Both the position numbers and the translations under genes were made by a program. Shown in pieces: positions 715-29,300 of a DNA stretch of 31,544 nucleotides. The stretch is from the NCBI GenBank assembly GCA_017881145.1, contig JADGRG010000153.1:1-31544 (forward strand), written 5' to 3'. Within the stretch, counting starts at the first letter, position 1; each line of letters opens with the position of its first letter. The stretch comes from Sandaracinaceae bacterium. GTDB taxonomy: Bacteria; Myxococcota_A; Polyangia; Polyangiales; JAFGIB01. The notes under the pieces were generated by a model. The model had not been told where the DNA came from. It made no database searches and saw only the letters and a program-made list of their open reading frames with translations.

Positions 715-1491
715 ATGGAGTTCTGGCGTCGACTCGATCGTGTCTGGGCCCGCTGGGAGGGCCGCATGATCGTCGCGGTTCTGCTCTCGATGGTTTTCGT
801 CGCGAGCTTCTCAGCTAGCGTTCGTAACCTCACGCGCTTCGACGTCCAGTGGGCGAATCACTTGCTCATGGATATGGAGTGGGCCGACTCCTTTCTGCGC
901 AAGGGCACCATGTGGCTGGCGTTCTTCGGTGCATCGCTTGCGACCCACTACCGCAAGCACATCAGCATCGACCTGCTGACGCGCATCGCACCGCTCAAGG
1001 CGAAATACGCGATGCATGCGTTCTCGGGCGTCGCCGCTGGCGTGATCACCATGGGACTCGCCTATGCTTTCGCGTCGGCCTGCTACCTGAATCTCACCGA
1101 GCGTCCGATCGAATACGAAATGCTCGGCGGTACTGGCTCGATGCACGTCTGCGACGCCACCGACGATCAGATCAAGGACCTCGCCGACTTCTCGCGTCCC
1201 ACGGGCTTCTGCGTGTTGCGCAAGGTGCTCAATACGGTGGGAGTTCCCGCCGAGACACCAGGCGCCGCTTTCCAGGTCATCGTGCCCTTGATGTTCATGG
1301 CGATCGCGTTGCGCTTTCTCGGTCAGGGAATCAGCGCCGGCTTTGCGTTGAGCAAGGGTACGGCTGCCATGGAAGAGCTGGAGGCCGAGGAGAAGTCTCG
1401 TATGGACGCCGTGCACGCCTCGGTGTCTGGAGCGCCAACACCACCACCTGATCCAGCCGGCTCAGCCGGGGGTCATGGAGGTGCGCTATGA
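715..1491 (+). CDS. dctQ: TRAP transporter small permease (DctQ/TatQ family) with a loop insertion
   Basis: About four hydrophobic segments. The motifs 'W..FFGASLAT..RKHISIDLL' and 'FQVIVPLMF..IALRF' are typical of DctQ. Stop overlaps the dctM start (ATGA 1488-1491). ATG 715 preferred over GTG 697. Confidence 0.85.
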   Translation: MEFWRRLDRVWARWEGRMIVAVLLSMVFVASFSASVRNLTRFDVQWANHLLMDMEWADSFLRKGTMWLAFFGASLATHYRKHISIDLLTRIAPLKAKYAMHAFSGVAAGVITMGLAYAFASACYLNLTERPIEYEMLGGTGSMHVCDATDDQIKDLADFSRPTGFCVLRKVLNTVGVPAETPGAAFQVIVPLMFMAIALRFLGQGISAGFALSKGTAAMEELEAEEKSRMDAVHASVSGAPTPPPDPAGSAGGHGGAL

Positions 1492-3020
1492 CCCTGGTCA
1501 TCACAGTCGGTCTGGTCCTTCTCGCCTTCGTGGGTGTGCCGCTCTTCTCGCTCTTCGGAGCTGCGGCCATCATGCTCTTCTTGAGCTTACCCGAGGGCAC
1601 TTGGGCATCGCCCGCCATCGACGTGTTCGGCGTGAACTTCGCCGAAAATCCGTCGCTCATGACCATCCCGCTCTTCACTTTCGCGGGCTATCTGCTCGCC
1701 GAGTCGGGCATGCCGCGGCGGCTGATTACGGTCTCGCGCGCGTGGCTCGGCTGGATGCCTGGCGGCCTGGCCGTGGTGTGCTTGGGCGCCTCGGCGTTCT
1801 TCACCACCTTCACCGGCGGCAGCGGCATCACCATCGTCGCCGTCGGCGGTCTGCTTCTGCCCGCCATGCTGCAGGAAAAATATCCTGACCGCTTTGCCCT
1901 CGGTCTGGTCACCACGGGTGGCTCGCTCGGCATCCTCTTTCCGCCCAGCGTTCCGCTGATCCTCTACGGCATCATCGCGAACCTCTCGATGAACAAGCTG
2001 CTGGTCGCAGGCATCATGCCCGGCATCTTGGTCGTGGTGGTGCTCGCGATCTACTCCGGGTTCGTCGGCGTCAAGACCGGCTTCACCAAGACACCCTTCG
2101 TGTGGAAGACCGCGTGGTCAACCCTCTGGGCGATGAAGTGGGAGGCTGCGATCCCGGTCGTGCTGCTCATCGGCATGGGCACGGGCGTGTTGCGCATCCA
2201 CGAGGCGTCGGTGTTCACCGCCGTTTACGTGCTCTTCATCGAAGTGGTCGTCTACCGCGACATCAACATCCGCCGCGACTTGCCGCGCGTGGCTGTCGAG
2301 TCGATGACCCTGGTCGGCGCGATCCTGATCATCATGTCCTGTGCCATCGGCTTCACGGCGTGGATGATTCAGGCCGAGATTCCGATGCGCGTGCTGGACT
2401 GGATGCAGACCCTGATCTCGTCGCAGTTCGTGTTCCTGGTCGTCCTGAACCTCTTCCTCATCTTCATCGGCATGCTGATGGAGATCTTCACGGCCATCAT
2501 CGTCGCGGTGCCACTGGTTCTGCCGCTGGCGCGCGCGTATGGCCTCGACCCCTACCACTTCGCGATCATCTTCCTATTGAACCTGGAGATCGCGTATCTG
2601 GCGCCGCCGCTCGGCATCAACCTCTTCATCTCGAGCATCCGTTTCGGCCGACCCGTCACCTATCTCTATCGGTCGGTGCTCACCTTCATCGCCGTGCTCT
2701 TTTGCGCGCTGATGCTGGTTTGCTACGTGCCCATCATCACCACCTGGTTGCCCAGCATGATGAAGAGCGACGACATGTCCGATGTGATGGGTGAGGCAAG
2801 CCAGCCGGGTGCGCCGGGCAACGACGAGAAGCTGCAGGGCCAGGACTTTGGCATGACAGGCGAAGACCTCGCGAAGCTCGATCAAGATGCCGGTACGGAC
2901 GGCGACACGTTACCGGATGAGATCTTGCCGGACGCTGGCAAGCCCTCAGCCGACAAGGCGGCGCCAGCGGCTGACACCGAGAAGCCTGCTCGACCCAAGA
3001 AGAAGGCCAAGCATCCCTGA
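1488..3020 (+). CDS. dctM: TRAP transporter large permease (DctM/TatM)
   Basis: DctM motifs 'L..IPLFTFAGYLL', 'GGSLGILFPPSVPLILYG', 'I.IVAVPL..P.A..YG.DP.HF', 'PPLG.NLF'. Ends in a ~85-aa acidic, Pro/Ala/Lys-rich tail. Confidence 0.93.
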   Translation: MTLVITVGLVLLAFVGVPLFSLFGAAAIMLFLSLPEGTWASPAIDVFGVNFAENPSLMTIPLFTFAGYLLAESGMPRRLITVSRAWLGWMPGGLAVVCLGASAFFTTFTGGSGITIVAVGGLLLPAMLQEKYPDRFALGLVTTGGSLGILFPPSVPLILYGIIANLSMNKLLVAGIMPGILVVVVLAIYSGFVGVKTGFTKTPFVWKTAWSTLWAMKWEAAIPVVLLIGMGTGVLRIHEASVFTAVYVLFIEVVVYRDINIRRDLPRVAVESMTLVGAILIIMSCAIGFTAWMIQAEIPMRVLDWMQTLISSQFVFLVVLNLFLIFIGMLMEIFTAIIVAVPLVLPLARAYGLDPYHFAIIFLLNLEIAYLAPPLGINLFISSIRFGRPVTYLYRSVLTFIAVLFCALMLVCYVPIITTWLPSMMKSDDMSDVMGEASQPGAPGNDEKLQGQDFGMTGEDLAKLDQDAGTDGDTLPDEILPDAGKPSADKAAPAADTEKPARPKKKAKHP

Positions 3021-3072
3021 AGTGTGGTTTCGGGTGGCGGTTGCCGTCACCCGGGCCTGAGCTCCAGAACGC

Positions 3073-3114
3073 AAAGCGTCGCCCACCGTTACGGTTGGGG
3101 CGGCGCTTTTTTTT
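3073..3114 (+). terminator. Rho-independent terminator after dctM
   Basis: Stem AAAGCGTCGCCC-ACCG-TTA-CGGT-TG-GGGCGGCGCTTT running into a T8 tract (3107-3114). A second hairpin, GGGTGGCGG-TTG-CCGTCACCC, lies at about 3030-3050. Confidence 0.85.
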
Positions 3115-3197
3115 GTGCTTCGGGTCTGAGCTGGCTCGCGCGGCGCAGCTCCCCGATGTCGCAGCGGGTCTTGGCGCGTCCAGCCCGACGGCCGGGT

Positions 3198-4106
3198 CTA
3201 GGGCGCGGCTGCCGCAGGCGTTCGTGCTTCCGGCAGGGTCAGCGCTCGGTGGCCCGTCAGCGCCTTGAGTTGGGCTGCAATCGAACAGTCGCTGGCTGCA
3301 CCACTGCCGTGTGCATCAGCTGCGGGCTTGGGCGACGCTGGCGCTCCCTTGGAAAGGATCCGTGTGGTTAGCAACGCGCCCTGTGATTGCACACGGGCGC
3401 GCAGCAGCGCGTCGCCGTGCCGCAAGTCCCAGAGAAAGACCTGCACGGGCCAATCGCTGCGGTTGGGGCCCTCTTCCAAGACGAGCAAGAGCCAGTCCGA
3501 GCGCAACAGGCCGAGCACGCTAGGCAGATCGGCGCGGATGTGGCGTGAGAGCACCTCGTCCTGCACGCGCAGGCTCATCACATCGCTGAGTTTCTTGGTC
3601 TGCTCGACGAATTCGGGCGTCAGGAATTCACCCTTCTCGTAGAGGCCGCGTGCCGACGTCGGCAGTAGCCCGAGGCACGTCGTGATCAGATCTGGCTGCA
3701 TGGCCTTGGCGCCTGCGGCAATCCCGGCTTTGGTCTTCGCCGCCGTCAGCGGCATGCGCAGGTACAGGCCCACCCCGGAGCGCAGCCCAGAGAGGTTGAG
3801 GCGCGGGTCGACGAGTGTCGCTGGTTCGCTCTGCGATGCTGAGAGCACCAGAGTCTCGATCTTGTCGCGCAGCGCCGTGTAGGCGTCCTTGGCCTGCGCC
3901 AGCTCCTCCTGATGCACGTGCAGGATCGAGGCTCGCAGTTCGTTCGCCTTGTGACGCTCCTTCAACCAGTAGCCGCCTACCACCGTCGCGATCGAAAGCG
4001 TTCCGATCACCACTACGCGCCAAGGAATCCGCGGCATGTAGGCTCTGGCATCGTCCGTGGCGTGGGGCCTTGCGGGCGTGAGCTGCGACGGTTTGTTGGC
4101 ACTCAT
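3198..4106 (-). CDS. Hypothetical single-pass membrane protein downstream of aglS
   Basis: Long ORF with high-GC3 codon usage. ATG at 4106 preceded by GGGGA. N-terminal TM segment WRVVVIGTLSIATVVGGYWL. Confidence 0.75.
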   Translation of the reverse strand: MSANKPSQLTPARPHATDDARAYMPRIPWRVVVIGTLSIATVVGGYWLKERHKANELRASILHVHQEELAQAKDAYTALRDKIETLVLSASQSEPATLVDPRLNLSGLRSGVGLYLRMPLTAAKTKAGIAAGAKAMQPDLITTCLGLLPTSARGLYEKGEFLTPEFVEQTKKLSDVMSLRVQDEVLSRHIRADLPSVLGLLRSDWLLLVLEEGPNRSDWPVQVFLWDLRHGDALLRARVQSQGALLTTRILSKGAPASPKPAADAHGSGAASDCSIAAQLKALTGHRALTLPEARTPAAAAP

Positions 4107-7023: not shown

Positions 7024-7647
7024 ATGGAAAAGATTTGGGGCTTTCTGCGCGACGGCGCGCCGTTCTCGTTCATCAACGTCGCAATCTTAGCGTTCGTCAT
7101 CGCGATCATCGCGGACCGCTTCGTGCACATTCTCACGAAGCACCAGGTGAACGGCGAAGAGTTCATGGCGCAGATCCGTAAGCTGGTTCAGGCCGGCAAC
7201 ATCGATCGCGCGATCAAGCTCTGCGAAGCCGAGCCCTTGCCGCTTCTGCAGGTCGTCAAAGCGGGTCTCACCCAGGTGAACCGTGGCGAAGAGGCCATCA
7301 TCGCTCAAATGGATGAGCGCATGAGCGAAGTGGTGCCGCTGCTCGAAAAGCGCATCGGCGTGCTTTGGGCACTGGCCAATATCGCGACCCTGGTTGGTCT
7401 GCTCGGAACGATCTCCGGTCTGATCAAGTCGTTCGCCGCCGTGGCTTTCGCCGAGCCGGCGCAGAAGTCTGCCTTGCTGGCGCGCGGTATTTCGGAAGCC
7501 ATGTACAACACGGCGCTCGGCCTCGGCATCGCCGTGCTCTGCATGTTCTTCCACATGGTGCTGCACGGCTGGGCGAAGCGGATCAAGCATGACCTCGAGC
7601 GCACGCAGATGAAGCTCGAGAACCTGCTGACTCTGAAGCGCGAGTAG
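7024..7647 (+). CDS. MotA/TolQ/ExbB proton-channel subunit (AglR paralog)
   Basis: Motifs 'AGNIDRAIKLC', 'GLLGTISGLI', 'LARGISEAMYNTALGL'. SD AAAGGAG near 7005-7011. Confidence 0.92.
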   Translation: MEKIWGFLRDGAPFSFINVAILAFVIAIIADRFVHILTKHQVNGEEFMAQIRKLVQAGNIDRAIKLCEAEPLPLLQVVKAGLTQVNRGEEAIIAQMDERMSEVVPLLEKRIGVLWALANIATLVGLLGTISGLIKSFAAVAFAEPAQKSALLARGISEAMYNTALGLGIAVLCMFFHMVLHGWAKRIKHDLERTQMKLENLLTLKRE

Positions 7648-7720
7648 TTGGCGAGGAGCTCCATTCGCTCACCCATAGGTCCGGCCCTCAGGTCGGGAAA
7701 AAGCCACGGGATAAGCACGG

Positions 7721-8275
7721 ATGCCTAAGTTCACGCCAAGACAGCGCAACTTCATACGCAAGCACGGTAAGCCCCCTCAGCTCGATCCTTCCGAGGCGGT
7801 GGGCGAGCTGAACATCGTGCCGTTTCTCGACATCGTCATGAACTTGATCATGTTCTTGCTCGCGACGAGCGAGGCTGTGCTCTTGATCTCGCAGATCGAG
7901 TCCGACCTGCCGAAGATCGCGCGCGGACGCAGCCACGGTGCCGATGTCGCGACGCCGCTCAACCTCAACGTGACCATCACGGAAGTGGGCGTCATCGTCA
8001 GCGGTTCGGGTGGCAAGCTCGCGCCCGGCTGCACGACCGTCGACATGGGCCGCACGATCACGGTGCCCAAGAAAGCCAAGGACTACGACTGGCCCGGCCT
8101 CACGGAATGCGTGTCGCGGATCAAGCAGCAGTTCAAGGACGAGAACTCGGTCACGGTCAGCGCCGACCCGCAGGTGCAATATGAGCACATCGTGGCGGCG
8201 ATGGATGCGGTGCGCATCGGCAAGACCAAGCAGGAGCTCTTTCCGCAAGTATTGATCTCGGTGGGCGTGCGTTAG
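7721..8275 (+). CDS. ExbD/TolR-family subunit (second motor cluster)
   Basis: TM 'ELNIVPFLDIVMNLIMFLL' with Asp37. C-terminal 'SADPQVQYEHIVAAMDAVR'. Two periplasmic Cys. Confidence 0.9.
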   Translation: MPKFTPRQRNFIRKHGKPPQLDPSEAVGELNIVPFLDIVMNLIMFLLATSEAVLLISQIESDLPKIARGRSHGADVATPLNLNVTITEVGVIVSGSGGKLAPGCTTVDMGRTITVPKKAKDYDWPGLTECVSRIKQQFKDENSVTVSADPQVQYEHIVAAMDAVRIGKTKQELFPQVLISVGVR

Positions 8276-8332
8276 GGCTTATTTTGCTGGGCTCTGGCGT
8301 GGCCGGAGCACGGATGGGAATGCGGTCTCTCC

Positions 8333-8905
8333 ATGGCAGAGCAAGACAACGAACGGCCAGCGACTCTCGGTGACTGCAAGCGCAAAGTGCGTCGCTTGCT
8401 GGGGAAGCACCAAGAGGAAGAGGAAGTCGGCCTCAACATCTATCCGATGATGGATATGATGACGATCCTGCTCGTCTTCTTGATCCAGAGCTTTGCCTCG
8501 GGCGCGGCTGCGGTCGTGCAGTCCGAGGAGCTGCAGATTCCTGTCTCGACCTCGCAGGTGGATGCGTCCGAAGCGCTTGCGCTGGTCATTTCTTCCAGCG
8601 AGGTGTCGGTCGAGGGCAAGCACGTGCTCTCACTGCGCAACGGCAAGGTCGATTCGAGCTTGAAGCAGGGCGGAGGCAACGGCTGGCTGATCACGCCGCT
8701 CTTCAACGCGCTGAAGCAGCACCGTGATCGCCTGAAGCTGATTGCCGCCCAGAACACCAAGCGGCCGTTCCGTGGCGAGGTTCGCATCATCGCCGACAAA
8801 CGAACGCCGTTCCGTTCTCTGGGCGAGGTGATCTACACGCTCGGCCAGTCGGAATTCGGCTCGCTACGGTTCATCGTACTGAAGCAAGAAGGCCACAAGG
8901 GCTAA
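8333..8905 (+). CDS. ExbD/TolR-family subunit (second motor cluster)
   Basis: TM 'LNIYPMMDMMTILLVFLI' with Asp41. C-terminal 'IIADKRTPFRSLGEVIYT'. Confidence 0.9.
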   Translation: MAEQDNERPATLGDCKRKVRRLLGKHQEEEEVGLNIYPMMDMMTILLVFLIQSFASGAAAVVQSEELQIPVSTSQVDASEALALVISSSEVSVEGKHVLSLRNGKVDSSLKQGGGNGWLITPLFNALKQHRDRLKLIAAQNTKRPFRGEVRIIADKRTPFRSLGEVIYTLGQSEFGSLRFIVLKQEGHKG

Positions 8906-9111: not shown

Positions 9112-11457
9112 TCACTGCGACGCGGCAGAGCGGCGTGCGAAGGCGATGCGCTGCAGCCAGTCGCTGGCTTCGGCGGCGTGCCCGGCGTGCCCGTCCTGCG
9201 CTAGAGCGCTGAAGGCTTCTGCGGAGCTCGCGAGCTCGCCTTGCGCAAAGTGGGAGATGCCGAGCAAACGTAGCGCCTCTGCACTTAGCTCTGGCGTCGG
9301 CAAGCCGCGCGCGCGAGCTTGGGCCAGCAGGTCGCTGGCCATCCCGAAGCGTCGTTGGAAGTAGAGCTGGCGCGCCTCCAGGTAGTGCGGCAACCCGTCG
9401 CTGCGCTCGGCTCGCAGCTCGCGCGCCAGATGAACGGCCGTGGCCCCGTCGGCTCGCTCGCCGTTGTCGCCGACCAGAAGCTCGAAGATCAGCTGGGCCT
9501 GACGAGCGCCGCCTTCCAAGCCGAGCAGCTTCACCTGCAGCAGTCGCAGCGTGTCGTCCTCGCTTGGCCGGCCCAGGAGCCGCTGATAGGCGCTCTTGGC
9601 AGTCGCCAGATCGCCGCGTCGGAACGCTTCGTCGGCGAGGCTCTGGCGAGCGAGCGCGATGATGGAGTCTGGGGCGCGCCTCGGACCCTCCAGCTCTGCC
9701 AGCTCTGCGTGGGCGCGCCCTTGCTCTCCGATGCGAGCCAGCACCGAAACCAGGATCGCGCGCGTGCTGGCATCCGAGCCGTCGACGTCCAGAATCTGGA
9801 TGCACTCGCGCTGGGCGGCCGGGTCGTCGCCAGCAGCGAGATCACTTCCCAGGGACTCGCGCAGCTTGGCAAGCGCGTGCGGACACACCTCCGAGAAGAT
9901 GCTGCTGCCAGCGAAGCGAGCCCGGGCGAGCGCCAGCGCCGAAGCGGGCAGCGGCACTCGACGAAGATAGGCATGCCACTTCTGCTCCAGCTCGTTGAGG
10001 GGCACGGAAATCGCGCGTGAGAGGTCGTCGCTTTGGTAGGCGCGCCGCACGGCGGCGCTTCCGTAGCGCTCGTCGACGAAGCGCAAGAGTGAGCCGCTGA
10101 GCGTGTAGGCCATGCCTCGCTCCTGGCCGAGAAAGCCCGCGCCCAGGAGCGCAGACAGTCGCGGTGCCATGCCGAGATCGAGCATGGCGCGCGCCCACTG
10201 ATGAGGCGTGAGCCCGCCCTGCGGCTGCCACGCGGCTGCGACCGCCACGCCCTCGATCAGCGCAGGGTCCGGCCAGAGGCCGCCGTTAGCTGCAGCCACG
10301 CGCAGCGGTCCGCGTCCAGCCCCGCGCGCCACGACGTGCACCAGCTCGTGGCCGAGCACGGGGTTGGGCCAGCCTGGCTCGCTCACATAGGCTTCCGAGC
10401 GCCAGGGTTTGGCGATGTTGGTCCCGGCCGCACCCATCAGCGCGGCTTTCTCGGCGTGTGAACGAAAGAAGAAGACCGAGATGCGGCCCGGATGCGTGAG
10501 GCCCAGCCAGTGCTCGGCTTGCCAGGTGCGAAAGTCACATTCCTCGCCCAGCCTCCGCGCCGTGCGCCGCTGCAGCTCCCGTGGAAAATACAGGTGACAG
10601 CGCGCGCTCAGCAGCTCTCCGCCGAGGCCCTCGCGGATCATCGCAACGCTGCTGGCGTGGCCGAGCTGTGGCGCGAAGATCTCGGCCGTGAATGCGCCAG
10701 CCAGGCAGAGCAGCGCGACCACGAACGCGGAGCGTCGCCCCTGCCGCGGACGAAACGACAAGCGCAGCCTGCTGGGATCGCCCGTGCTGACCACCAGCAA
10801 CGCCAGGCCTGCGATGAAGGCGCTGGTCGCGACGCGCAGCGACACAAACGCCGTGGTGATCGCGACCCCTTCGTCGTAGAGCGTGCCGGCGAAGTAGCCG
10901 AAGTAGTGACCGTAGGCGAAGATGGCTGGCGTCGCGTAGAAGCGAGACGCGCCCAGGAGCATCTCGCCGACGGGCAGGCCAAACGCGAGCCAACCCGCAA
11001 GGCGCGGCCTGGCTACCAGCATCCCGCATATGACGCCGGTCATGCTGCCGAGCAATACGCCGAACCCGGGGCCGAGGAGCATGAAGAGCAGACCGGTGAG
11101 CGGCGTGCAGTTGCGCACGCGCAGAGCGTCGAGCCAGAGCAAGACACAGGGCAGCACGAAGAGCGAGAGCGCGTGGCCCAGCGCTGCGTCGAGCACTTGG
11201 GTCACGCTGGAAGAGTCGCCCCGTTGGCGCGCGTGGCTGGTCAGTTGTGCTGCGACCAGTGCAGCCATTGGCGGCAAGAGCATTCCGAGGCAGAGGGCGC
11301 TCTCGGGGCCCTGCACGCCCAAGAGAGGCACCGCACACAAGCCAAGTGTCGCCGTCCCGGCTATCGCGAGCGAGACGCGTGCGCTCGGCACCGCAAACGA
11401 GCTGGCAAGCCAGCGGCGCAACGCGCCAGCGAACGAAGCACTCGGCGAAACCAGCAT
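9112..11457 (-). CDS. Polytopic membrane protein with HExxH gluzincin-like (peptidase MA-type) domain and C-terminal TPR-like helices
   Basis: About seven hydrophobic segments in the first ~270 aa. HELVH at 10336-10350, followed 28 residues later by the E of 'LIEGVAVA'. Ala/Leu-rich helical C-terminus. ATG overlaps the lon stop (TGATG). Confidence 0.75.
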   Translation of the reverse strand: MLVSPSASFAGALRRWLASSFAVPSARVSLAIAGTATLGLCAVPLLGVQGPESALCLGMLLPPMAALVAAQLTSHARQRGDSSSVTQVLDAALGHALSLFVLPCVLLWLDALRVRNCTPLTGLLFMLLGPGFGVLLGSMTGVICGMLVARPRLAGWLAFGLPVGEMLLGASRFYATPAIFAYGHYFGYFAGTLYDEGVAITTAFVSLRVATSAFIAGLALLVVSTGDPSRLRLSFRPRQGRRSAFVVALLCLAGAFTAEIFAPQLGHASSVAMIREGLGGELLSARCHLYFPRELQRRTARRLGEECDFRTWQAEHWLGLTHPGRISVFFFRSHAEKAALMGAAGTNIAKPWRSEAYVSEPGWPNPVLGHELVHVVARGAGRGPLRVAAANGGLWPDPALIEGVAVAAAWQPQGGLTPHQWARAMLDLGMAPRLSALLGAGFLGQERGMAYTLSGSLLRFVDERYGSAAVRRAYQSDDLSRAISVPLNELEQKWHAYLRRVPLPASALALARARFAGSSIFSEVCPHALAKLRESLGSDLAAGDDPAAQRECIQILDVDGSDASTRAILVSVLARIGEQGRAHAELAELEGPRRAPDSIIALARQSLADEAFRRGDLATAKSAYQRLLGRPSEDDTLRLLQVKLLGLEGGARQAQLIFELLVGDNGERADGATAVHLARELRAERSDGLPHYLEARQLYFQRRFGMASDLLAQARARGLPTPELSAEALRLLGISHFAQGELASSAEAFSALAQDGHAGHAAEASDWLQRIAFARRSAASQ

Positions 11458-13838
11458 CAGGCGTGCGCGGAAGAGAGTGCGGCCGGCGGCGGCTTGATTT
11501 CGAGCGGCTCGGTGAGCGCGATTTTCAAGACCTCGTCGACGCGTGAGATCAGGTGCACCGTGAGATCCTTGCGGATGCGTTCGGGCACCTCGTCGAGGTC
11601 AGGCGCGTTCTGCTTGGGGATCACCAGCACCTTGATACCCGCGCGGTGAGCCGCCAGGCACTTCTGCTTGAGTCCGTCGACACGGAGCACTTTGCCGCGC
11701 AGCGTAATCTCACCGGTGAGCGCCACATCGGGTCGTACCGGGATGGACCGGAGCATGGACACCAGCGAGAGGAAGATGGAGAGCCCGAGCGCCGGACCGT
11801 CCTTGGACATGCCCCCCTTGGGAAGATGGATGTGCAGGTCGATGCGATCGAGGAAGTCATCCTTGAGGCCGTAGGAGGACGCGCGGGCTCTCAGATACGA
11901 AAACGCCGCCTGGGCCGATTCCTTGAGCACTTCGCCCATCTTGCCGGTCAGATGCACCTCGCCCTTGCCGGGCATCTGCGTGCACTCGACCAGCATGATC
12001 TCGCCGCCGCCGGGCGTCCAACACAGCGTTGTAGCGATGCCGATCGCTGCCACCTTCTCTGCCACGTCGAGCTCGATCTTGGGTGGGCCGAGTAGTGTCT
12101 CGACGAGCTTGGGATCGGCATCGATGTGCGTGCTGTCGCCGCCTGCCACCCGCACCGCGACGGCGCGACAGAGCGCGGCCACCTGCTGCGCCAGCTTCCG
12201 AACGCCGGCTTCCGAGGTGTATTCGTTGACCAGCTTTTCGATCGCGGCGTCGCTGATCTCGAGGTGCTCGGGCGTCAGGCCGTGATCGGCGAGCTGTCGG
12301 GGAACCAGGAAGTCGCGTGCAATCGCCAGCTTGTCGTCGCGCGTGTAGCCGGGAATCTCGATGATCTCCATGCGATCGAGGAGCGGGCGCGGGATGGTGT
12401 CACGGCGATTGGCGGTGGCGATGAAGAGCACCTGCGAGAGATCCACCGGCACGTTCAGGTAGTGGTCCACGAACGCGTGGTTCTGTTCGGGGTCGAGCGC
12501 CTCGAGCAGCGCACTGGCCGGATCACCGCTGTAATCGGCGCTCATCTTGTCGACTTCGTCGAGCACGAAGACCGGGTTGCCGGCACCGGCTTTCTTGAGG
12601 CCGGCGACGATGCGACCCGGCAAGGCGCCCACGTAGGTGCGTCGGTGGCCGCGGATCTCGGCCTCGTCCTGCACACCGCCAAGCGCAATGCGCTGAAAAG
12701 CTCTGCCGGTGGCGCGGGCGATGGAGTGGCCGAGCGAAGTCTTGCCGACGCCCGGCGGACCGATGAAGCAGAGGATCGGGCTGCGCTTGTTGGTGCGGAG
12801 CTTACGAACCGCGATGTATTCGACGATGCGCTTCTTGGGCTCTTCCAGGCCGTGGTGATCTTCGTCGAGCACGCGCCGCACTTCGCTCACGTCGAGGCGG
12901 TCGGGCGTCTGCCGACTCCACGGCAGATCGGAGAGCCACTCCACGTAGTTGAACGCCACCTGATATTCGGCGCTGGCTGAGTTCATCGAGCTCATTCGCG
13001 AAAGCTCGCGCCGTCCGGCTCGGTCCGCCTCGGGGGGCGGGTTGGCTTTGCTCAGCCGCTCGCGCAGGTTGTCGAGCTCGTCGTCCTCGGTGCCGGCGTC
13101 GCCGAGCTCGCGGCGGATCGCGCGCAGCTGTTGTCGCAAGAGCAGCTCGCGCTGCGACTTGGACATCTCCTGCTCGACCATCGAGGCGACTTCTTGTTTG
13201 ACGCGGTGAATTTCGTGCTGGCGTTTGATCAGATCGAGCACCGCCTTGAGCCGCGCGCGCACATCCAGCGTTTCGATGATGCGCTGCTTCTTGTCGGTGG
13301 GGATGGGTAAGTGGGAAGCGACCAGATCGGCGAGCGCACCGGGGTCCTGCACGTTGTCGAGGACCACGCCCATCTCGCGCGGTGGCGAGGGCAGAGTGCG
13401 TGCCAAGTCGCGCGCGATCTCGCGCAGGTGCACGGTGAGAGCGTCGATCTCTTCGTCGCGCTGCAGGTGTTCAGCGAGGCGTTCCACGCGTGCACGCAGC
13501 CAGGGCTCGCGGCCCACCGGACGCACCACCCGCATGCGTGCGATACCCTGCAACACAACGCTGTAGTGGCCCGAGCTCAACCGAATCACTTTGAGCACGC
13601 GCGCCAGCGTCCCGAAGTTGTAGAGCCGCTCGAAGCCCGGGTCTTCCTCTTCGGCGTCGCGCTGCGCGAGCACGCCGATGGTCGGTCGCTCTTGGCCGAA
13701 CGCTTCCTCGATCAGCCGCACCGAGCGCGCACGACCGACGTTGACCGGCACCACCGATGCGGGGAAGAGCACCGAGTTACGAAGCGCGAGGATAGGCAAC
13801 GCATCGAGCGCGCTCTCCGGAATGATCGACTCAGCCAT
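11457..13838 (-). CDS. lon: Lon-family AAA+ protein (LonA type) with catalytic Ser replaced by Ala
   Basis: LON N-domain 'LPILALRNSVLFP', Walker A GPPGVGKTS, pore loop RRTYVGALPG, Walker B VLDEVDK, Arg finger PLLDRME. Protease domain reads KDGPALG where KDGPSAG is canonical. Confidence 0.95.
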   Translation of the reverse strand: MAESIIPESALDALPILALRNSVLFPASVVPVNVGRARSVRLIEEAFGQERPTIGVLAQRDAEEEDPGFERLYNFGTLARVLKVIRLSSGHYSVVLQGIARMRVVRPVGREPWLRARVERLAEHLQRDEEIDALTVHLREIARDLARTLPSPPREMGVVLDNVQDPGALADLVASHLPIPTDKKQRIIETLDVRARLKAVLDLIKRQHEIHRVKQEVASMVEQEMSKSQRELLLRQQLRAIRRELGDAGTEDDELDNLRERLSKANPPPEADRAGRRELSRMSSMNSASAEYQVAFNYVEWLSDLPWSRQTPDRLDVSEVRRVLDEDHHGLEEPKKRIVEYIAVRKLRTNKRSPILCFIGPPGVGKTSLGHSIARATGRAFQRIALGGVQDEAEIRGHRRTYVGALPGRIVAGLKKAGAGNPVFVLDEVDKMSADYSGDPASALLEALDPEQNHAFVDHYLNVPVDLSQVLFIATANRRDTIPRPLLDRMEIIEIPGYTRDDKLAIARDFLVPRQLADHGLTPEHLEISDAAIEKLVNEYTSEAGVRKLAQQVAALCRAVAVRVAGGDSTHIDADPKLVETLLGPPKIELDVAEKVAAIGIATTLCWTPGGGEIMLVECTQMPGKGEVHLTGKMGEVLKESAQAAFSYLRARASSYGLKDDFLDRIDLHIHLPKGGMSKDGPALGLSIFLSLVSMLRSIPVRPDVALTGEITLRGKVLRVDGLKQKCLAAHRAGIKVLVIPKQNAPDLDEVPERIRKDLTVHLISRVDEVLKIALTEPLEIKPPPAALSSAHA

Positions 13839-14271: not shown

Positions 14272-15378
14272 ATGTCGCCCGCGCGCCTCACTCCGGAAAC
14301 CGACAAGTCTTTCCGACGCCTTTCGGACTTTCGGCTCGCTGACCTCGAAGCGATCCGTCTGCTCTTGCGCGGCGGCTCGGTCATCGATTGGCACCGCATG
14401 AACTTCGCCTCCGAAGAGGAGGCCGTCGAGTTCATCGGTTCGCAGGATTTCGATCTGGACGATCAGCGCGACCTCGATCGCATCAGCGCGATTCGCGACG
14501 AAGCGATCGCGTTTCTGCGCCGGCACTTCGACTTCCCGGTGCCGCGTCCGGTCGCCGCGCTCGACCTGCCCGGGTTGCTCATGCTGGCCTCAGGCTCAGG
14601 TCACAGGCAGATGTGCGCCTGCGCGATTCTCAAGGCGATGCACATCGTGCACCACCTGGAAGGCCGAGAGCTGCTCTTCATGCTGCCCTTTTCCGACCAG
14701 GAGCTCTTCCACTTGGTCGAGGAGAAAGTCTATCGCGTGATGGGTGGCATGCTGGCCCACGGCTTTCCGATCCTGGAGTTCACTGGCGGGCGCAAGAACA
14801 AAGACTCGCTCTACCAGAAGCTGCTCTCCAAGTCGGATACCATCGCCGCCAACATCTACGACAAGCTGCGCTTCCGCATTGTGACGCACGCACCGGAAGA
14901 CGTCTTTCCGACGCTCAACTACATGCTGCGGCACATCTTCCCGTTCAACTACGTGATCCCGGGGCAGAGCACCAACACGCTCTTCCAGTTCAACTCCTAT
15001 TGCGAGCACGACCCGCACCTCTCCCTGCTGCTGCCGGAGATGCAGACCAAGCCCGATCAGGAAGACGCGCTCACGCGCATGGATAATCGCTTCAGCGCGC
15101 AGAGCTACTCCATCGTGCACTTCGTGGTCGATATGCCGTTGCGTGTGCCGCAAGAGATGCTCGACCGCGCGCCGCCGCAAGCGCGAACGCTGGGACCGGT
15201 CGTCTTCGTGCTCACCGAGTTCCAGATCCTCGACCGCGCTACCGAACAGCGCAATGAGCTCGGCGACGCGAGCCACGCCGCGTACAAAGAGCGTCAGAAG
15301 CGCGCCGTCATGCATCGGCTCAAGGTCGGCGAGGGTTTCGAGCCCGGCAACACCGCACCACCGCCGCGCAAGGGTTAA
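14272..15378 (+). CDS. TIGR04552-like protein with RelA/SpoT synthetase motifs (small alarmone synthetase-like)
   Basis: Motifs GRKNKDSLYQK, IYDKLRFRIV, YSIVH, EFQI and ELGDASHAAYKE line up in order with the RelA synthetase motifs. The family name is recalled, not searched. Confidence 0.7.
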   Translation: MSPARLTPETDKSFRRLSDFRLADLEAIRLLLRGGSVIDWHRMNFASEEEAVEFIGSQDFDLDDQRDLDRISAIRDEAIAFLRRHFDFPVPRPVAALDLPGLLMLASGSGHRQMCACAILKAMHIVHHLEGRELLFMLPFSDQELFHLVEEKVYRVMGGMLAHGFPILEFTGGRKNKDSLYQKLLSKSDTIAANIYDKLRFRIVTHAPEDVFPTLNYMLRHIFPFNYVIPGQSTNTLFQFNSYCEHDPHLSLLLPEMQTKPDQEDALTRMDNRFSAQSYSIVHFVVDMPLRVPQEMLDRAPPQARTLGPVVFVLTEFQILDRATEQRNELGDASHAAYKERQKRAVMHRLKVGEGFEPGNTAPPPRKG

Positions 15379-16962: not shown

Positions 16963-17252
16963 GGGGTCGTCTCCTGTGTGGGTGAGTTACGCGAGCGGGT
17001 TGGCTCGCGGGTTTGCGCGTTGGTTTGCTCGTGGCCACATACCTGACGCAACGGAATCCTGGCAAGCGTTCCCGCGCGCGACGGAGTACTCCCACCACAG
17101 GTCGGGTAGCAACCGAGCTTGCGATGAGGTACGCAAAGGCCTGCGTATGTGTGACGGGCCGGCAGGTTGCAGCGGCTTGGAGATTTCGCGGCCTCGGCCC
17201 TACAGAAAGGCTCGACGTCGGCCGTAAACAAGCAAGGACACTAGCGTCGAGC

Positions 17253-20200
17253 ATGCGGACTACCGGGCACTGGGTCGAGCAGTTGAGCCAGCTTCACCGG
17301 CTGAAGACGCTCGAGGAGCAACGCGCGGTCTGGCGCCAGGGCATGGCCCAGCTTGCGGCCGCGGCGGCAGACCAACGTGCGGTGCCTCTCGAAGGCGCCA
17401 ACCCGGAAGACCTGGTGGCCAGTGCGCGGGTGGCGCTGCAGGCCTGCCTGGTCGATGACGTCGATTGGCTCTCGCCGCCAGCAGCTGCAGCCGCCATCCA
17501 TGAGCTGGCTACGGCCTTGCCGCATGGTGCCGAACGCAAGGAGCTCTCGCGCCGAGCCCTGCAGCGCATGGAGCACGGCGATGGCTCGACCTTCGTCGCG
17601 CTGGCGACGGCGCTTGCTCTCGGAACGACCGAGGGCATCGCGCCGGAGACGTTGCGCAGCCGCATCGCGCTCTGTCTGGCACTGCCCACCGGTGGTGGCA
17701 CGCAGGTGGACGCCATGGCGCTCGCTCTGATCTCGCGCACCGAGTTGCAGAGCGAATACCTCTTGCGTGGAGCCACCGGCTCACTGCCGTCGCGGCGTCT
17801 GGCTGCACGCTTGCTCGAAAGAGCTGCGCGCGAGGCCGCTCGACGATCGAGTCTGGGTGACGACGCCGGCCTCAAGGTCTTCGCCAGCGAAGCCGTGACT
17901 GCCGTGTGGCGGCGCCTCTTGGCGGATCGCGAATCGCTGGTCTGGCGTCACGTTGCCACCGCACGCGGTCTGCTCTCGCGCGCGGTGAGCGAGCTCGACG
18001 CGGAGATCGAGCGCAACCTGGAACCCGATCTCTCCCCCACCGAGTGGCGTCGCGCGGCGGCCTCGCTCGCGGCGCGCATCGCCGTCGCTCCCAGTGCAGC
18101 GCTCGCCCGCGCTCGTTCGCTCTTTGGCACACAGCTCTTCGTCAAGGACCGTGGTTTGGCGGGAGCCATGGTCTTCGGTCTACCTCGCGCCGCCGAGATC
18201 GAGCCGGAGACCGCCGAGTTGCTGCTGGAATCGCTGATCGAAATCGGCGGAAGCTACGCCATCGAATCGCTGGTGGAGCTCCTGCGCGAGCAACCGGGCA
18301 GCGGCTTTGGACGGCGTGCCGCGGAGCTTGCGGCTCAGCGCTTGCGTGGCGAGCTGCAGCGACCCGAGACCAGCGACACCGCCGGCAACCGCGCCAGCGC
18401 TTCGCTGATGCTCGATCACTTGCAGGCGGCGAAGAATGGCCGGGTCACGCCGCTTGCCGCGCGGTTCTCGCAGGCTCTCGAGGTGTTTGCCGAGCACAGC
18501 GCCGACGCTGCCTTTGCAGCGGCCGCAGCCGGCCTCGGCGACCTCGATGGCGCGCTCGAACAACTGGCGCGCACCAGCGAGACCAGTGCAGCGGGGCGCC
18601 ACCAAGTCCTGCGTTTGCTCAGCGACATCGATACCGGGTTGTTGCAGTCGTCGCTGGTCAGAGATCTGCTCGCGCTCGGCGGTGACCTGGGCCGCTCGGC
18701 GTTGCAGCATGTGGACGAGCTCTTCGAGCAGCTCAACACTTGGCTGCTCACACATGAGAGCGCCGCGGCTTCGGGCGCGGTCGTCGACGCCACGCTGCGC
18801 ATGCGACGCTTGGTGACGCTCCTACACTTGATGGACGCGGAGTCGGGCCACGAGCCGAACTCCGCGCCCGGCAAGTCGCGGCGTGTGCGCGTCGCCAACA
18901 CGCTCCTGACGGAGCTGCGGCAGCATGCGGCAGGAGGTTTCCGGCGCGTACTCTGCGCGACCTTGGCGCGTGCCTTCGACGCCATGGAGCGCGAAGACGC
19001 CTTCGAGATCTCGGACCTGGTACTGGTGGTTTCAAGCACTCTCGACTCCGCCGACGACATCCAGACGCTGGCCGAAGCCTCCATGGTGCCTGCGCTAGAG
19101 ACCAGTCTCTTCGCGTTGGCCCAGCTCATGCGCAGCGGCGTGACAGCGGCCAACGACGGTCCGGCGCGGCGGCAGCGGTTGGATGCGCTGCGCGCTTTTG
19201 TTGCAGCTCTGCCTGCTGCCAGCTCGCCGCGTGTTTCGGCGTTGCGCCGCGCGCTGCTCGATCTACACCGCAGTCTCGACGCGCTGGCCGGCTTGCGTTG
19301 CCTTGCGGACATCGATCCCAACGGTGTAGCGCTGCTCGAACAAGCCACGCACACGCTTGCGCTCTTGCTGGCCGGAGCGAGCCGACGCGTGCTCCTTTCA
19401 CCCAGCCTGCGAAGCATGAGCTTCGGCGATGCGCTGCGCGAGCTCACGCTGGCGCTCGACGGAGTGCGCGACGGCTCTCGACTCGCGAGCTTCGAGTGCT
19501 CGCTCAACGCGCTCAGCGAGTCCCTGGCCACTGATCTGCCGCGCTGGCTCGCACAGACCATCGAATCGGTTCTGGAGACGCTGCGCAGGCTGCCACTGCA
19601 GGCGCTCTCCAGCCACGGCAACAGTATGCCGCCGGCAGCTCGCGAGAGACCGCTGCCCCCGTGGGTGCCACCGAGCCGTACGCTCGGTGGCTTCCACATC
19701 GTCGAGCCACTCGGAGAAGGCAGCGGTGGCTCGGTGTTCGTGGTCAAGCGCGTCGACGAGCGTCACAAACCCAATGCCCAACGCTTTGCGCTGAAGGTGC
19801 CCTCCTACGATGGACAGGCTGCGCGCGCTCTCTCGGAACAGCAGTTCTTGAAGCTCTTCCGCGAAGAGGCCGGCGCGCTCCTGGCTCTCCCTGACGACCA
19901 TCCGAACCTGGCGGGCTTCGTGACCTTCGACGCAGGCGTCAAGCCCAAACCCGTGCTGGTGATGGAGCTGGTGGAAGGAATCTCGCTTGCCCGTCTGCTG
20001 GAACGGCGCAACCTTTCGACCATCGACGCGTTGGACATTCTCGACGGTGTGGCAGCGGGACTGCAGGCCATGCACGACCTGGGCATCGCGCACCTCGATC
20101 TCAAGCCGCTCAACATCGTGCTGCGCGAGAGCGTTCGAGACGCTCTGCTCGACCGCGCAGCGCCCGCCAGCGCGCTAGATCCGGTGCTCGTCGACTTCGG

Positions 20201-20612
20201 GCTTTCCGGAAGGCGACTGCGGCCGGGCTGCGCGACCGCGAACTACGGCGCGCCGGAGGTCTGGGGCTTCATGTCCAAAGGCGAGACCAGCGACCCTCGA
20301 CCTGCAGACGTCTACGCCTTTGCTTGCCTCGCCTACGAAACCCTCACTGGCTCCGATCTCTTCAAGGCACCGAGCGAGATGGCGATGATTGCAGCTCATA
20401 TCAGCCACGATGGTCTGCCCGACCCGCTGGCCAGCTGGCAGAGTGATCCCACACTCGCTCTACTTTCGGCATGGCTGCAGCACGGCTTGCGCCGCAATCC
20501 CGGCGATCGTCTGACCATCGATGGGTTGCGCGAACAACTCAGAGAGCTGCGACCCGCGCTCCACGAAGTGAGCTGGCCCTTGTCGCTGGCTGCGCCACAT
20601 CGCGCCGCGTAG
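17253..20612 (+). CDS. Hanks-type Ser/Thr kinase with C-terminal kinase domain and a large helical N-terminal region
   Basis: Motifs GEGSGG, ALKVP, HLDLKPLN, DFG, YGAPE, DVYAFAC in the last ~310 aa. ATG 17253 follows AAGGA; the ORF-track start at 17013 is probably too far upstream. Confidence 0.88.
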   Translation: MRTTGHWVEQLSQLHRLKTLEEQRAVWRQGMAQLAAAAADQRAVPLEGANPEDLVASARVALQACLVDDVDWLSPPAAAAAIHELATALPHGAERKELSRRALQRMEHGDGSTFVALATALALGTTEGIAPETLRSRIALCLALPTGGGTQVDAMALALISRTELQSEYLLRGATGSLPSRRLAARLLERAAREAARRSSLGDDAGLKVFASEAVTAVWRRLLADRESLVWRHVATARGLLSRAVSELDAEIERNLEPDLSPTEWRRAAASLAARIAVAPSAALARARSLFGTQLFVKDRGLAGAMVFGLPRAAEIEPETAELLLESLIEIGGSYAIESLVELLREQPGSGFGRRAAELAAQRLRGELQRPETSDTAGNRASASLMLDHLQAAKNGRVTPLAARFSQALEVFAEHSADAAFAAAAAGLGDLDGALEQLARTSETSAAGRHQVLRLLSDIDTGLLQSSLVRDLLALGGDLGRSALQHVDELFEQLNTWLLTHESAAASGAVVDATLRMRRLVTLLHLMDAESGHEPNSAPGKSRRVRVANTLLTELRQHAAGGFRRVLCATLARAFDAMEREDAFEISDLVLVVSSTLDSADDIQTLAEASMVPALETSLFALAQLMRSGVTAANDGPARRQRLDALRAFVAALPAASSPRVSALRRALLDLHRSLDALAGLRCLADIDPNGVALLEQATHTLALLLAGASRRVLLSPSLRSMSFGDALRELTLALDGVRDGSRLASFECSLNALSESLATDLPRWLAQTIESVLETLRRLPLQALSSHGNSMPPAARERPLPPWVPPSRTLGGFHIVEPLGEGSGGSVFVVKRVDERHKPNAQRFALKVPSYDGQAARALSEQQFLKLFREEAGALLALPDDHPNLAGFVTFDAGVKPKPVLVMELVEGISLARLLERRNLSTIDALDILDGVAAGLQAMHDLGIAHLDLKPLNIVLRESVRDALLDRAAPASALDPVLVDFGLSGRRLRPGCATANYGAPEVWGFMSKGETSDPRPADVYAFACLAYETLTGSDLFKAPSEMAMIAAHISHDGLPDPLASWQSDPTLALLSAWLQHGLRRNPGDRLTIDGLREQLRELRPALHEVSWPLSLAAPHRAA

Positions 20613-26392: not shown

Positions 26393-29300
26393 TCAGGGGG
26401 CGGTGCCGCTGCACGGCTTTTCGGCCTTGCACATGGGAAGCTGGTCGGTGATCTTCCCGGAGGTCTTGCTCTTCAAGAGGTTCTCCGCGGCGCTGCCCAG
26501 ATGGAGCGCTTTGGAGATGGGGATGTGGTCGGCGAGAATGTCTCCGAGGACCGAGCATACGATGGTGTCGCCGAGCTGCAGGATGCTGGGATCGATCAGC
26601 GGATCGGTGAAGCTCAGCGCGGCTTCGGCAAAGGCCACCGCGGCCGCTCTGCCCACTGCGGCGATGATCACGAAGGTATTGACCATGCCGGAGTCGATCT
26701 CGGAAACCAAGATGCCGAGCGCATCGATCTGATCATTGGCGGTGTCGACGATCTCCTGGCAGCTCTCGATCGCGCCCCCGGTGCCGTCGCGCAGAATGCC
26801 GAGCGCTGTGCCGCTCGATGCATCGACGGCAAAGAACGCGGAGCTGGAGCCATCGCTGGCGAGGATCCGGTAGGTGCTGCTGTAGCGATCCAGAAGCGCA
26901 GCCTGCGAAGCCCGTGCGCTCGCGGGAAAGCCAGACAGAGCGGCCGTGGTGTCACCGCCTGGTACCAGGACGCTGAGAGGTGCACTGGCAAGATACGAGC
27001 GCGTCGAGCCCTTCGACATGAACGATTCGGCGATGGCGAGCCGTAAGGACGCCTGGAATGTGGTGTCGAAGGCCGCCTTGCCATCGGCAGCGCCGAGGGT
27101 CGTGAAGCGCGTGGTCGGAAGCAGGTCGACCGAGGTTCGGCGCGACAGGGGCAGCGTCAGGTGCACGGCGGCACGCAACGCCGTCTCAACGACGCTCACG
27201 CCATCCGGATAGGGAAGCGGCGCGTGAGCCAGGAGCGAGCGCAAGAGCGGTCGCGCAGGCGCGTGCTGGGCTTGGGCGTAGGCCTCCTGTGCGTTCTTCG
27301 CGTCGATGGCGTGCTGCACCGGCTCGCCAGCGATCGCGGTCGAGAGCGCGTCGTCGAGCCACGCGGAGAGCGTGGGTGCTGCGCCCTCGAAGGTGATCCA
27401 CGCCGAAGAGAGAAAGAAGTCCCGCACGGCCGCAGACGCTGCGGCCAGTTGGACAGAGGCGTCCACGTCGCCGGGCAGTGGAGCTACCGGCAGGCCAACC
27501 AAGGTTCGATCGACGCTCTGACCGTCCATCTCGACGTGGAGCTGGATACCGACGAATTCCGAGAGCATCGCGCTTGTAGGCTGGCCCGAGGTCGAGGTCG
27601 AGGCCGTGAGCGTGTAGCTGGTGCTGGCGTCGGCGCGTCCGACCCGCACCTGAACCTGATGGGTTCCAGCAGCGCCGCGCGACGCATAGGCGAGTCGATA
27701 CGGAAACGCGCTGCGACTGGCACCGAGCTCACTCAAGGCAGCTTTGGCCACCGTTAGATCCGTTAGGTCGCCCGCATCGACCAGACGTCCGCCGCTCTTC
27801 TGCGCGATCGGGCTGAGCGCATCCGGATTGAGCTTGGATGAGGCGACGTAGCAGCCGATGACGAGGATGGGACATGAGGTGGTCGTGGCGAGGAACTGCG
27901 CCGCGCGGCCCGCAGCCTGCGTGTCGTTGCCGTCGGTGAAGACGAGCATGAGTGAAGGGCCGGCAGCCAGTCCTGCGAGCACGCCATCGTAGAGGGGTGA
28001 GGTAGCGCCAGCCGCGCCAAGCAACGCTTGCTTCACGGCACTGCTCGCGGTCTGCACGAACCCGGCAGCAGAGGGCGCACCGTCGAGGGAGCAGACTTGC
28101 ACGGCCGCCCTGGGCACGGCGGAGAAGACCGCGTCTGCGATGGCACCCGCCTGGGAATCGGTCAGCACGGGTTGGCTGCCAGTGCCGTCCCAGAGCAGAA
28201 GCACGCGTGGCGCACCGCCGTTTTCGCGCACCAGCGCCGAAACGCGCACGCCATCCTCTTCGATCACGAAGCTCGATGCGGGCAGGCCGGCGACGATCGC
28301 GCCGTTGCTGTCGACCGGCGCAAGCGTAAGCTCGATGATCGGCGCATGAGCCACCGATGCCTTGGCCGTCACCGCGCTCACTGTGCTGGCATCGCCGCCG
28401 GTGACCAGCGGTATGCCGTTGATGGTCGTGGTCCCGGCTTTGGTTTCCGCCACGTCCCCGAAGGCGCTGATGGCTGCACCGGCGATGTAACGTTTCTGCT
28501 TTCCGTCGGACCCGATCAGCGCGAAGCCTGCCACGAAGTTCGTGATGTCTTGAGGTTTCGCCGCCAGGAACACGGGCAGCGAAACCGTCGGTTGCGGCGA
28601 AAGCTTCACGCGTGCACCCGCTAGCTCATCGTAACCGAACTCGCCTTGCGCGAGCGTGATGGGCGTCTGTGGCGCACCCGCCCTCGTGGCACTGAGGCGC
28701 AGTGTGAGCTTGCGCGCACCGGCGAGTGCTGCCGCAGGCGCGATGTTCGTTGCGTAGCTTTCACCGTAGCTTGCGTCGGGGAGCAGCGTGTTCAGATAGA
28801 CGGTGGCGCCTTTGTCTTGCACTGCGACCAAGGGCACCCCGGAGAACGGGGACAAGTAGGGCGTGTTGACGGAGATATCGGCGGGCAAGAGCGGGCGCAG
28901 CTTGGCGAAGAGCGCCGCGCTTTCGGCGCCGTCCGGGTCGATGATGGTCGGAGCGGCGGCGTTCTGCGCGGGCATGAAGGGCAGAGGTCCCGGCTCGAAG
29001 GCGAGCGCGATGCTGCGCAGGTAGACCTTCTTCGGCGCATCCGACGGATAGAGCGCCCCTGCCGGATCGCCTTTCACGATGGACGCAGAGAGCCCGGCCT
29101 GCCCGAGCAGTGTCGCCAGCAACTCGGCGCGCTCGCGCGGAGTCCCCACACCGGTGCGTAGCAGGTTGTCGACGCCGAAGCGGACCGCCGTCTCGATCGA
29201 CTCCGCGGCGCCGAGCGGGGGAACCGCCGCGATGTTGTCGCGCACGAACGCGAAGATCAGCTTCGGATCTTTGGTGGCGACCGCAATGGCCGCACGTGCA

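Follow-up and report, generated by a model that had tools for sequence, protein, structure and literature searches.

Why would a Lon whose protease site has lost its nucleophile be encoded directly upstream of a zinc peptidase anchored in the membrane? The question is raised by a stretch of 31,544 nucleotides, called the window below (contig JADGRG010000153.1 of assembly GCA_017881145.1, from a Sandaracinaceae bacterium), in which two long open reading frames follow one another on the minus strand. The contig belongs to a metagenome-assembled genome that is 86% complete, and the nearest relatives of that genome carry the names Polyangiales or Sandaracinaceae (phylum Myxococcota). An earlier reading of the letters alone, the sequence-only reading, proposed that the products of the two genes may make up a split FtsH-like machine, the ATPase of the Lon unfolding substrates for, or regulating, a separate membrane metallopeptidase. 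The analysis given here indicates that the pairing is real and uncharacterised, and that a split FtsH is an improbable account of it. Three features of the window define the pair (aa, amino acids; TM, transmembrane; TPR, tetratricopeptide repeat):

11457-13838, minus strand: LonA paralog of the partner-linked clade, 793 aa (Pfam LON_substr_bdg, AAA, Lon_lid and Lon_C)
9112-11457, minus strand: the partner, 781 aa, with a 7-TM anchor, a putative gluzincin domain and a TPR domain
11455-11459, minus strand: TGATG, the overlap of the Lon stop with the partner start

At the last of these sites the plus strand reads CATCA, hence TGATG in the coding direction; the TGA of the Lon gene and the ATG of the partner gene share one base. 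The overlap had been claimed by the sequence-only reading, and it was confirmed. In its exact form it is peculiar to the source genome; the part of it that is conserved is a short, operon-like junction. A scan of the locus for promoters and terminators did no better than chance.

A conserved operon in the order Polyangiales

A Lon is called linked here if its gene lies directly upstream of the partner gene on the same strand, and the other Lon paralogs are called unlinked. Two partly overlapping sets of loci from Polyangiales were considered, one with 19 assessable loci and a larger one with 75 assessable loci among 80 from named Polyangiales. Within the order, the partner is present as a single copy in 38 of 41 genomes, and a Lon gene lies directly upstream of it, on the same strand, at 18 of the 19 loci of the smaller set and 68 of the 75 loci of the larger. 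Between the stop of the Lon and the start of the partner the distance is short (median of 6 nucleotides over 85 linked loci, of which 12 overlap and 54 have gaps of 1-50 nucleotides). The gene pair is a conserved operon in the order Polyangiales, and the pairing that the sequence-only reading took from a single junction holds up within that order.

The partner family extends over the phylum: 183 of 301 genomes contain a match, distributed by family in an all-or-none fashion. A search with residues 1-520 of the partner finds 1,988 representatives of clusters formed at 50% identity. Open frames in genomes G007 (1588 aa) and G017 (1608 aa) were considered as fusions of Lon with the partner and rejected, for in both a TGA parts the two genes, which happen to be in frame.

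Active site and descent of the linked Lon

The first gene of the pair encodes a LonA homologue. It scores 887 bits against TIGR00763 (cut-off 608) and has the architecture of LonA in one chain (Pfam PF02190, E value 8.4e-48; PF00004, 5.6e-23; PF05362, 2.4e-74). Like E. coli Lon, of peptidase family S16, it consists of an N-domain, an AAA+ module, a lid and a Lon_C domain. The motifs of the motor and of the protease site are placed as follows:

12738-12761, minus strand: Walker A, GPPGVGKT, residues 360-367, found in all linked Lons save for T/S and V/T variants
12546-12566, minus strand: Walker B, VLDEVDK, residues 425-431
11511-12113, minus strand: Lon_C domain (PF05362), of protease fold with a degraded active site
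11790-11792, minus strand: codon of Ala683, at the position of the catalytic Ser (KDGPALG here, KDGPSAG in all unlinked paralogs)
11661-11663, minus strand: codon of Lys726, the equivalent of the catalytic Lys, 43 residues past position 683 (its motif, GLKQK, is present in all linked Lons)

A pore-loop segment, RRTYVGALPG, has its Tyr intact. The Ser-Lys dyad of LonA, by contrast, is incomplete: Lys726 is present, but Ala683 stands in place of the Ser, and adjacent columns of the active site are degraded as well. The protein is therefore predicted not to be an active S16 peptidase. The sequence-only reading was right, then, in describing a Lon without a nucleophile that retains its AAA+ motifs. 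Since at least two more Lon genes, with canonical KDGPSAG, are found in the source genome, the Ser-less Lon is an extra paralog. It also stands apart from LonA at large in that the clade to which it belongs is restricted to Polyangiales and is found in an operon with a membrane metallopeptidase.

The descent of that clade was assessed from trees made with FastTree and with IQ-TREE, the latter under LG+G4 and with the columns of the catalytic motif taken out. In both trees all 70 linked Lons are monophyletic, with support 100. Their sister in the IQ-TREE tree (support 94) is a clade of unlinked paralogs with KDGPSAG, which takes in two Bradymonadaceae-like (f33) genomes, G052 and G209, and KDGPSAG is the motif of all 13 unlinked Lons of the trees. 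The linked Lons are far more varied, with KDGPA[LMVAQG]G, KDGAAAG, KDGASAG, KDGPSAG, RDGPSAG and other variants. At 41 of 68 linked loci the residue in place of the nucleophile is Ala, and at the remaining 27 it is Ser. The maximum likelihood tree calls for nine changes between Ser and Ala, and at least six are needed even when all branches with support below 95 are collapsed and resolved most favourably. One of the changes appears to be a reversal of the nucleophile: KEGPSLG, of the Ser type (L067 / L008), is nested in the genus of the window, which is of the Ala type.

Ser-less Lons are confined, among the Lons compared, to the clade linked to the partner, and to that extent the co-occurrence of the two that the sequence-only reading envisaged stands. 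It does not stand in the other direction, as about 40% of linked Lons (the 27 of 68) keep their Ser and most partners are found without a Lon. Since the partner occurs phylum-wide and so many linked Lons have Ser, the pairing predates the loss of Ser and is independent of it.

Two linked Lons are unusual in other respects. That of locus L043, which is the same as L104 and L128 (OZ245758.1), reads KDGAASG, the Ser having moved one position downstream. That of locus L040 (G262:C11, at about 1259-3597) aligns in two frames, one covering residues 7-672 of the query and the other 669-786, so a frameshift must lie just before the catalytic motif, and the gene is either a pseudogene or the victim of an assembly error.

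What has become of the rest of the protein can be judged from those columns that are invariant in unlinked Lons. In the linked clade, 2 of 90 such columns are degraded in the AAA+ module, versus 11 of 52 in the protease domain, and for the Lon of the window the corresponding figures are 1 of 90 and 9 of 52. The changes in the protease domain of the clade cluster round the active site (682-687, 707-708 and 721). Pairwise dN/dS for the protease domain is 0.06-0.20 amongst Lons of the Ala type, 0.02-0.19 amongst those of the Ser type and 0.10-0.21 amongst unlinked paralogs. The values for the Ala type imply that the domain is still constrained. The pattern fits selection for the ATPase and for the overall architecture of the hexamer, with catalysis by Ser and Lys now dispensable, and to judge from these alignments the linked Lons of the Ala type may well act as ATPases only. 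A search of the literature found no description of the pairing of Lon with this partner nor of a natural Ser-less bacterial LonA. Neither did it find a natural lineage of LonA in which the nucleophile was repeatedly lost under selection on the ATPase and the protease fold.

Domains and topology of the partner

An AlphaFold2 model of the partner, obtained with 37 orthologues, has a pLDDT of 94.3 and a pTM of 0.92. The chain runs through a short amphipathic helix, seven TM helices (residues 24-260) and an alpha/beta domain before ending in TPR-like helices (521-781). The corresponding features of the window are these:

10678-11457, minus strand: TM domain, residues 1-260, comprising the amphipathic N-terminal helix, six helices in the fold of ABC-2/type V permeases (ABC, ATP-binding cassette) and TM7 (modelled by itself, pLDDT 92.9)
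9898-10677, minus strand: gluzincin peptidase domain, residues 261-520, predicted to be periplasmic (structural matches to M9 and M30)
10336-10350, minus strand: HELVH, the zinc-binding motif, with H370, E371 and H374
10252-10254, minus strand: codon of Glu402, the presumed third zinc ligand, in EGxAxA (EGVAVA, residues 402-407)
9115-9897, minus strand: TPR-like helical domain, residues 521-781 (family profile against TPR chains of the PDB, E value 1e-32; TPR_19/TPR_16 of Pfam in most members)

The model and the alignment bear out the sketch given by the sequence-only reading of a 781-aa neighbour with about seven TM helices, HELVH followed by the Glu of EG.A, and TPR-like helices. No variation is seen at H370, E371, H374 or E402 across 112 orthologues, whether or not these are linked to a Lon (the set is somewhat redundant between rounds of fetching). 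Superposition by VIA-align places residues 268-504 closest to a Vibrio M9 collagenase, 7wss_A (Z 15.6, rmsd 3.4 over 224 aa), with further matches to clostridial collagenases, ColT (4ar8, Z 13.5), the M30 peptidase lugdulysin (7bb8, 12.7) and an M1 aminopeptidase (8sw0, 10.8). The partner has what marks a gluzincin (clan MA(E)), namely HExxH, a downstream Glu and a catalytic fold like that of thermolysin. By motif and fold it belongs to that clan, and it is likely to be active.

Residues 1-520 match no model in Pfam or NCBIfam, and the partner taken whole yields weak TPR matches in Pfam and nothing in NCBIfam. Peptidase_MA_2 (PF13485) matches 4 of 37 members, weakly (E value about 0.025), and a profile made from the alignment finds only TPR chains in the PDB. 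Foldseek, given the whole model of 781 residues, returned weak rows for collagenases and TPR proteins; it was VIA-align, applied domain by domain, that gave the clear matches. The TPR gluzincins of Peptidase_MA_2 are among the closest known proteins, as they too have HExxH with a Glu in EGxA, a thermolysin-like fold and a C-terminal TPR domain (M9 collagenases being comparable for the fold). They differ in that the partner family, which barely touches PF13485, has a 7-TM domain fused to it. An analogy is offered by BepA, an HExxH protease of the periplasm that also has a TPR domain, but its peptidase is of family M48 and it is without a polytopic anchor. Clusters of the ESM Atlas contain look-alikes of the full-length partner (TM score 0.87), in which the commonest phylum is Ignavibacteriota, and a form of the partner of 513 aa, lacking the TPR domain, is present in Myxococcota.

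The TM domain resembles something else altogether. Its residues 1-235 superpose on the permeases of ABC-2/type V exporters, which account for all of the top 15 matches by VIA-align. NosY, of the NosDFY system, is the best (Z 14.4, rmsd 3.8 over 211 aa), followed by ABCG1 and a mycobacterial pump (Z 13.0) and then by ABCG2, ABCH, ABCA3, ABCA4, ABCG5/8, PmtCD, Wzm and KpsM; the first unrelated bundle appears at Z 8.5. NosY is also first according to Foldseek, at an E value, 0.03, that is not significant. The six-helix fold and the N-terminal amphipathic helix of such permeases are both found in the partner. Unlike them, it goes on to a seventh helix and to a peptidase in the same chain. ABC2_membrane of Pfam does not match the partner family, and no gene for an ABC ATPase lies beside the partner gene, either in the window or at 15 loci outside the Lon-linked set.

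On which side of the membrane, then, does the peptidase lie? Averaged over 37 sequences, the N-terminus together with loops 2-3, 4-5 and 6-7 contains 11.4 residues of Lys or Arg, versus 2.4 in loops 1-2, 3-4 and 5-6. The N-terminus should therefore be inside and, given seven helices, the C-terminus outside. The fold leads to the same place. ABC-2 permeases have both their N-terminus and their C-terminus in the cytoplasm, so the extra helix, TM7, would take the chain across the membrane. Lastly, every sequence from Polyangiales has both Cys287 and Cys307, those of other orders have neither, and Cys117 (in loop 3-4, predicted to be outer) and Cys525 are invariant, a pattern that is the one expected of disulfides. 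From the counts of charged residues, the ABC-2-like fold with its added TM7 and the co-varying Cys residues, the HExxH and TPR part of the protein is predicted to be periplasmic. This would put it on the opposite side from the cytoplasmic Lon, an outcome adverse to the sequence-only reading.

Neighbouring genes and the relation between the two proteins

Beyond the pair itself, two flanking elements of the window recur in other genomes:

14272-15378, plus strand: RelA_SpoT-like gene, divergent from the Lon gene, a conserved neighbour (weak match to PF04607)
7024-8905, plus strand: ExbB-ExbD-ExbD cluster, convergent with the partner gene, a partly conserved neighbour (Pfam)

The RelA_SpoT-like gene is divergent from the linked Lon gene at 56 of 60 assessable loci in Polyangiales. 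It was found beside none of 31 Lon paralogs of types B or C and at none of 14 partner loci in other orders, and a three-gene association, of the RelA_SpoT-like gene with the Lon and the partner, is possible. ExbB-ExbD-ExbD is found downstream of the pair at 31-37 of 80 loci. The usual neighbours of the partner gene outside Polyangiales are genes for DUF192 and HEAT-repeat proteins before it and for a SnoaL-like protein after it (L027, L028 and L032, partner loci of Bradymonas-like, Microvenator-like and other genomes). Downstream of the partner at L028 there is a gene for a second such protein, of 915 aa, with TPR and Peptidase_MA_2 domains. Elsewhere in the window, 17013-20612 (plus strand) encodes a protein of 1199 aa with a C-terminal Ser/Thr kinase domain and some 890 unannotated N-terminal residues, and 26393-29527 (minus strand) is an open reading frame of 1044 aa with no match in Pfam.

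Within the Sandaracinaceae the interval between the two genes varies. At L061, L063 and L069 it measures 0.9-1.2 kb and probably contains an inserted gene, and relatives of these have genes for a 361-aa TPR protein and an MCP upstream of the partner, with the Lon gene not adjacent. The series looks like a stepwise uncoupling of the pair.

The answer to the opening question that is favoured here, tentatively and with rather less than even confidence, is that the linked Lon has become an ATPase-only, cytoplasmic accessory to a membrane gluzincin that faces the periplasm, the two acting from opposite faces on shared membrane clients or on the partner itself. The operon, specific to Polyangiales, brings together two genes of different age. 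One is a duplicated LonA in which the Ser-Lys site is degenerating and the AAA+ motor and protease fold are kept under purifying selection. The other is an older inner-membrane protein, found across the phylum, made up of an ABC-2-like six-helix bundle, TM7 and a gluzincin with TPR repeats that is predicted to be periplasmic. By ATP-driven unfolding or chaperoning, the Lon could hold, or exert a pull on, the cytoplasmic ends of clients that span the membrane, or those of the partner, and the zinc peptidase would meanwhile cut at the periplasmic face. The work would be done on two sides of the membrane and not in a single chamber like that of FtsH. Cooperation of this kind is suggested by the conservation of the operon and by a co-occurrence that is one-way: the linked Lon is found only in an order that bears the partner, and there nearly always adjoining it, and the partner is widespread without this Lon.

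Parallels exist for homologues of AAA+ proteases whose ATPase does its work, or is able to, at or close to a membrane with no cutting involved. One is the FtsHi proteins, which are pseudo-proteases of chloroplasts (PMC8197885). LONP1 offers a second case, in that its ATPase, and not its protease activity, is needed for it to act like a chaperone; it also makes contact with the machinery for import (PMC8368198). FtsHi belongs to a different family, however, and LONP1 is an intact enzyme; the linked Lon is a putative motor or chaperone.

The one-way character of the dependence follows from the limits of the linkage. At 14 loci from other orders or classes, including those of Bradymonas sediminis and Microvenator marinus, where the partner is annotated merely as a TPR or hypothetical protein, no Lon gene was found within 3.5 kb of the partner gene. 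A number of observations weigh against the favoured reading. Within Polyangiales, G129 (a complete genome of 1.8 Mb) and G032 have the partner and no Lon of the linked clade, only paralogs of other types. In G032 the RelA_SpoT-like gene, the usual neighbour of the Lon, is found 0.9 kb upstream of the partner, an arrangement suggestive of deletion of the Lon gene in place. Conversely, in five Sandaracinus-like genomes a Lon of the linked clade has its Ser but lies away from the partner. Adjacency is in any case weakened as evidence of coupling by the wider synteny, which takes in the RelA_SpoT-like gene and ExbBD. If the two proteins touch, one might look for the place where they do so, and it is not apparent: no conserved C-terminal tail was found in the linked Lons, nor, in the cytoplasmic segments of the partner, any motif specific to Lon-linked orthologues that could serve as a docking element. 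Conservation within the TM domain is 0.64 in the outward loops and lowest in the short inward segments (0.08-0.47). Finally, the topology assumed by the favoured reading is itself a prediction.

The same facts lend themselves to the view that the pair share synteny and regulation and nothing more: an independent cytoplasmic Lon, serving as chaperone or regulator (perhaps with the RelA_SpoT-like gene), and an independent envelope protease would be made from one transcript, with neither contact nor substrate in common. On this account it is natural that both elsewhere in the phylum and in G129 and G032 the partner gets by without this Lon, that no cytoplasmic docking element is conserved, that the RelA_SpoT-like gene is as faithful a neighbour as it is in a region that is syntenic throughout, and that the pair has come apart in the Sandaracinus-like lineage. 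It is harder to see why gaps of a few nucleotides, or overlaps, should have been kept across an order in which the partners have diverged to 40% identity, or why the linked clade, in the genomes examined, should occur only in an order bearing the partner. Such co-regulation is judged somewhat less likely than the favoured reading. Distinctly less probable is the idea that the Ser-less Lon is a regulatory subunit in mixed hexamers with intact Lon paralogs, its neighbour being incidental or a client. The means are at hand, in that 2-3 additional LonA genes with KDGPSAG are present in every Polyangiales genome examined, and selection is seen to maintain the protease fold, the base of the hexamer, in the absence of the nucleophile. 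FtsHi proteins, for comparison, probably assemble with an active FtsH. Against the idea, the linked Lon is only 52-55% identical to its nearest paralog. It is very improbable that the Lon of the window remains a protease by means of another nucleophile or of a shifted Ser, like that in the KDGAASG of some relatives. Lys726 is always present, the protease domain is under purifying selection and one lineage does have a Ser one residue downstream, but the Lon of the window has neither Ser nor Thr at 683 or 684, and columns 682, 684, 687, 708 and 721 of the active site are degraded as well.

That leaves two arrangements in which the Lon would be physically part of a membrane machine. FtsH unites the membrane anchor, the AAA+ module and the peptidase in a single chain, with the peptidase in the cytoplasm beneath the AAA+ ring. 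A split version of it, with a ring of Lon unfolding substrates and feeding them to the HExxH peptidase of the partner, has the appeal that the parts correspond (AAA+ ring, membrane anchor, zinc peptidase), that they are tightly coupled in one operon and that the nucleophile has been lost only in the linked clade. Yet the motor here is a Lon, the parts are divided between two reading frames that differ in phase, and no protein of the length of a Lon-partner fusion was found among the best 150 representatives. The peptidase fold is like those of M9 and M1, not M41. Moreover, the partner family is older than the linkage, exists mostly without it and has no Lon beside it at the 14 loci from outside the order, and 27 of the 68 linked Lons keep their Ser. 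If the peptidase is periplasmic, as predicted, a cytoplasmic Lon cannot pass unfolded chains into it as the AAA+ ring of FtsH does. The chance that the pair is a split FtsH is accordingly put as very small. The broader claim of the sequence-only reading, that the Lon unfolds for or regulates the metallopeptidase, loses its first half, the hand-over of unfolded chains, and keeps its second: a looser link, regulatory or across the membrane, is possible. The other arrangement is a long shot, if a slightly better one. Perhaps the Lon is docked to the ABC-2-like TM domain from the cytoplasm, in the place usually taken by an ABC ATPase, and the AAA+ motor pulls substrates that span the membrane or drives changes of conformation that pass by way of the bundle to the periplasmic zinc peptidase. 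If so, the pair would represent a new class of two-sided transmembrane proteolytic machine powered by AAA+, and it would be explained why the protease site of the Lon became dispensable.

Both proteins are made of known folds and are of known kinds, the one a pseudo-protease AAA+ paralog and the other a gluzincin with TPR repeats. The linked lineage of Lon would provide a ready-made system in which to study the roles of Lon apart from proteolysis, and the partner stands for a family of considerable size, some 2,000 clusters at 50% identity, in which an ABC-2-like permease fold, a predicted periplasmic gluzincin and TPR repeats are joined. If the two do cooperate across the inner membrane, they would constitute a new arrangement for proteolysis in the envelope of myxobacteria.

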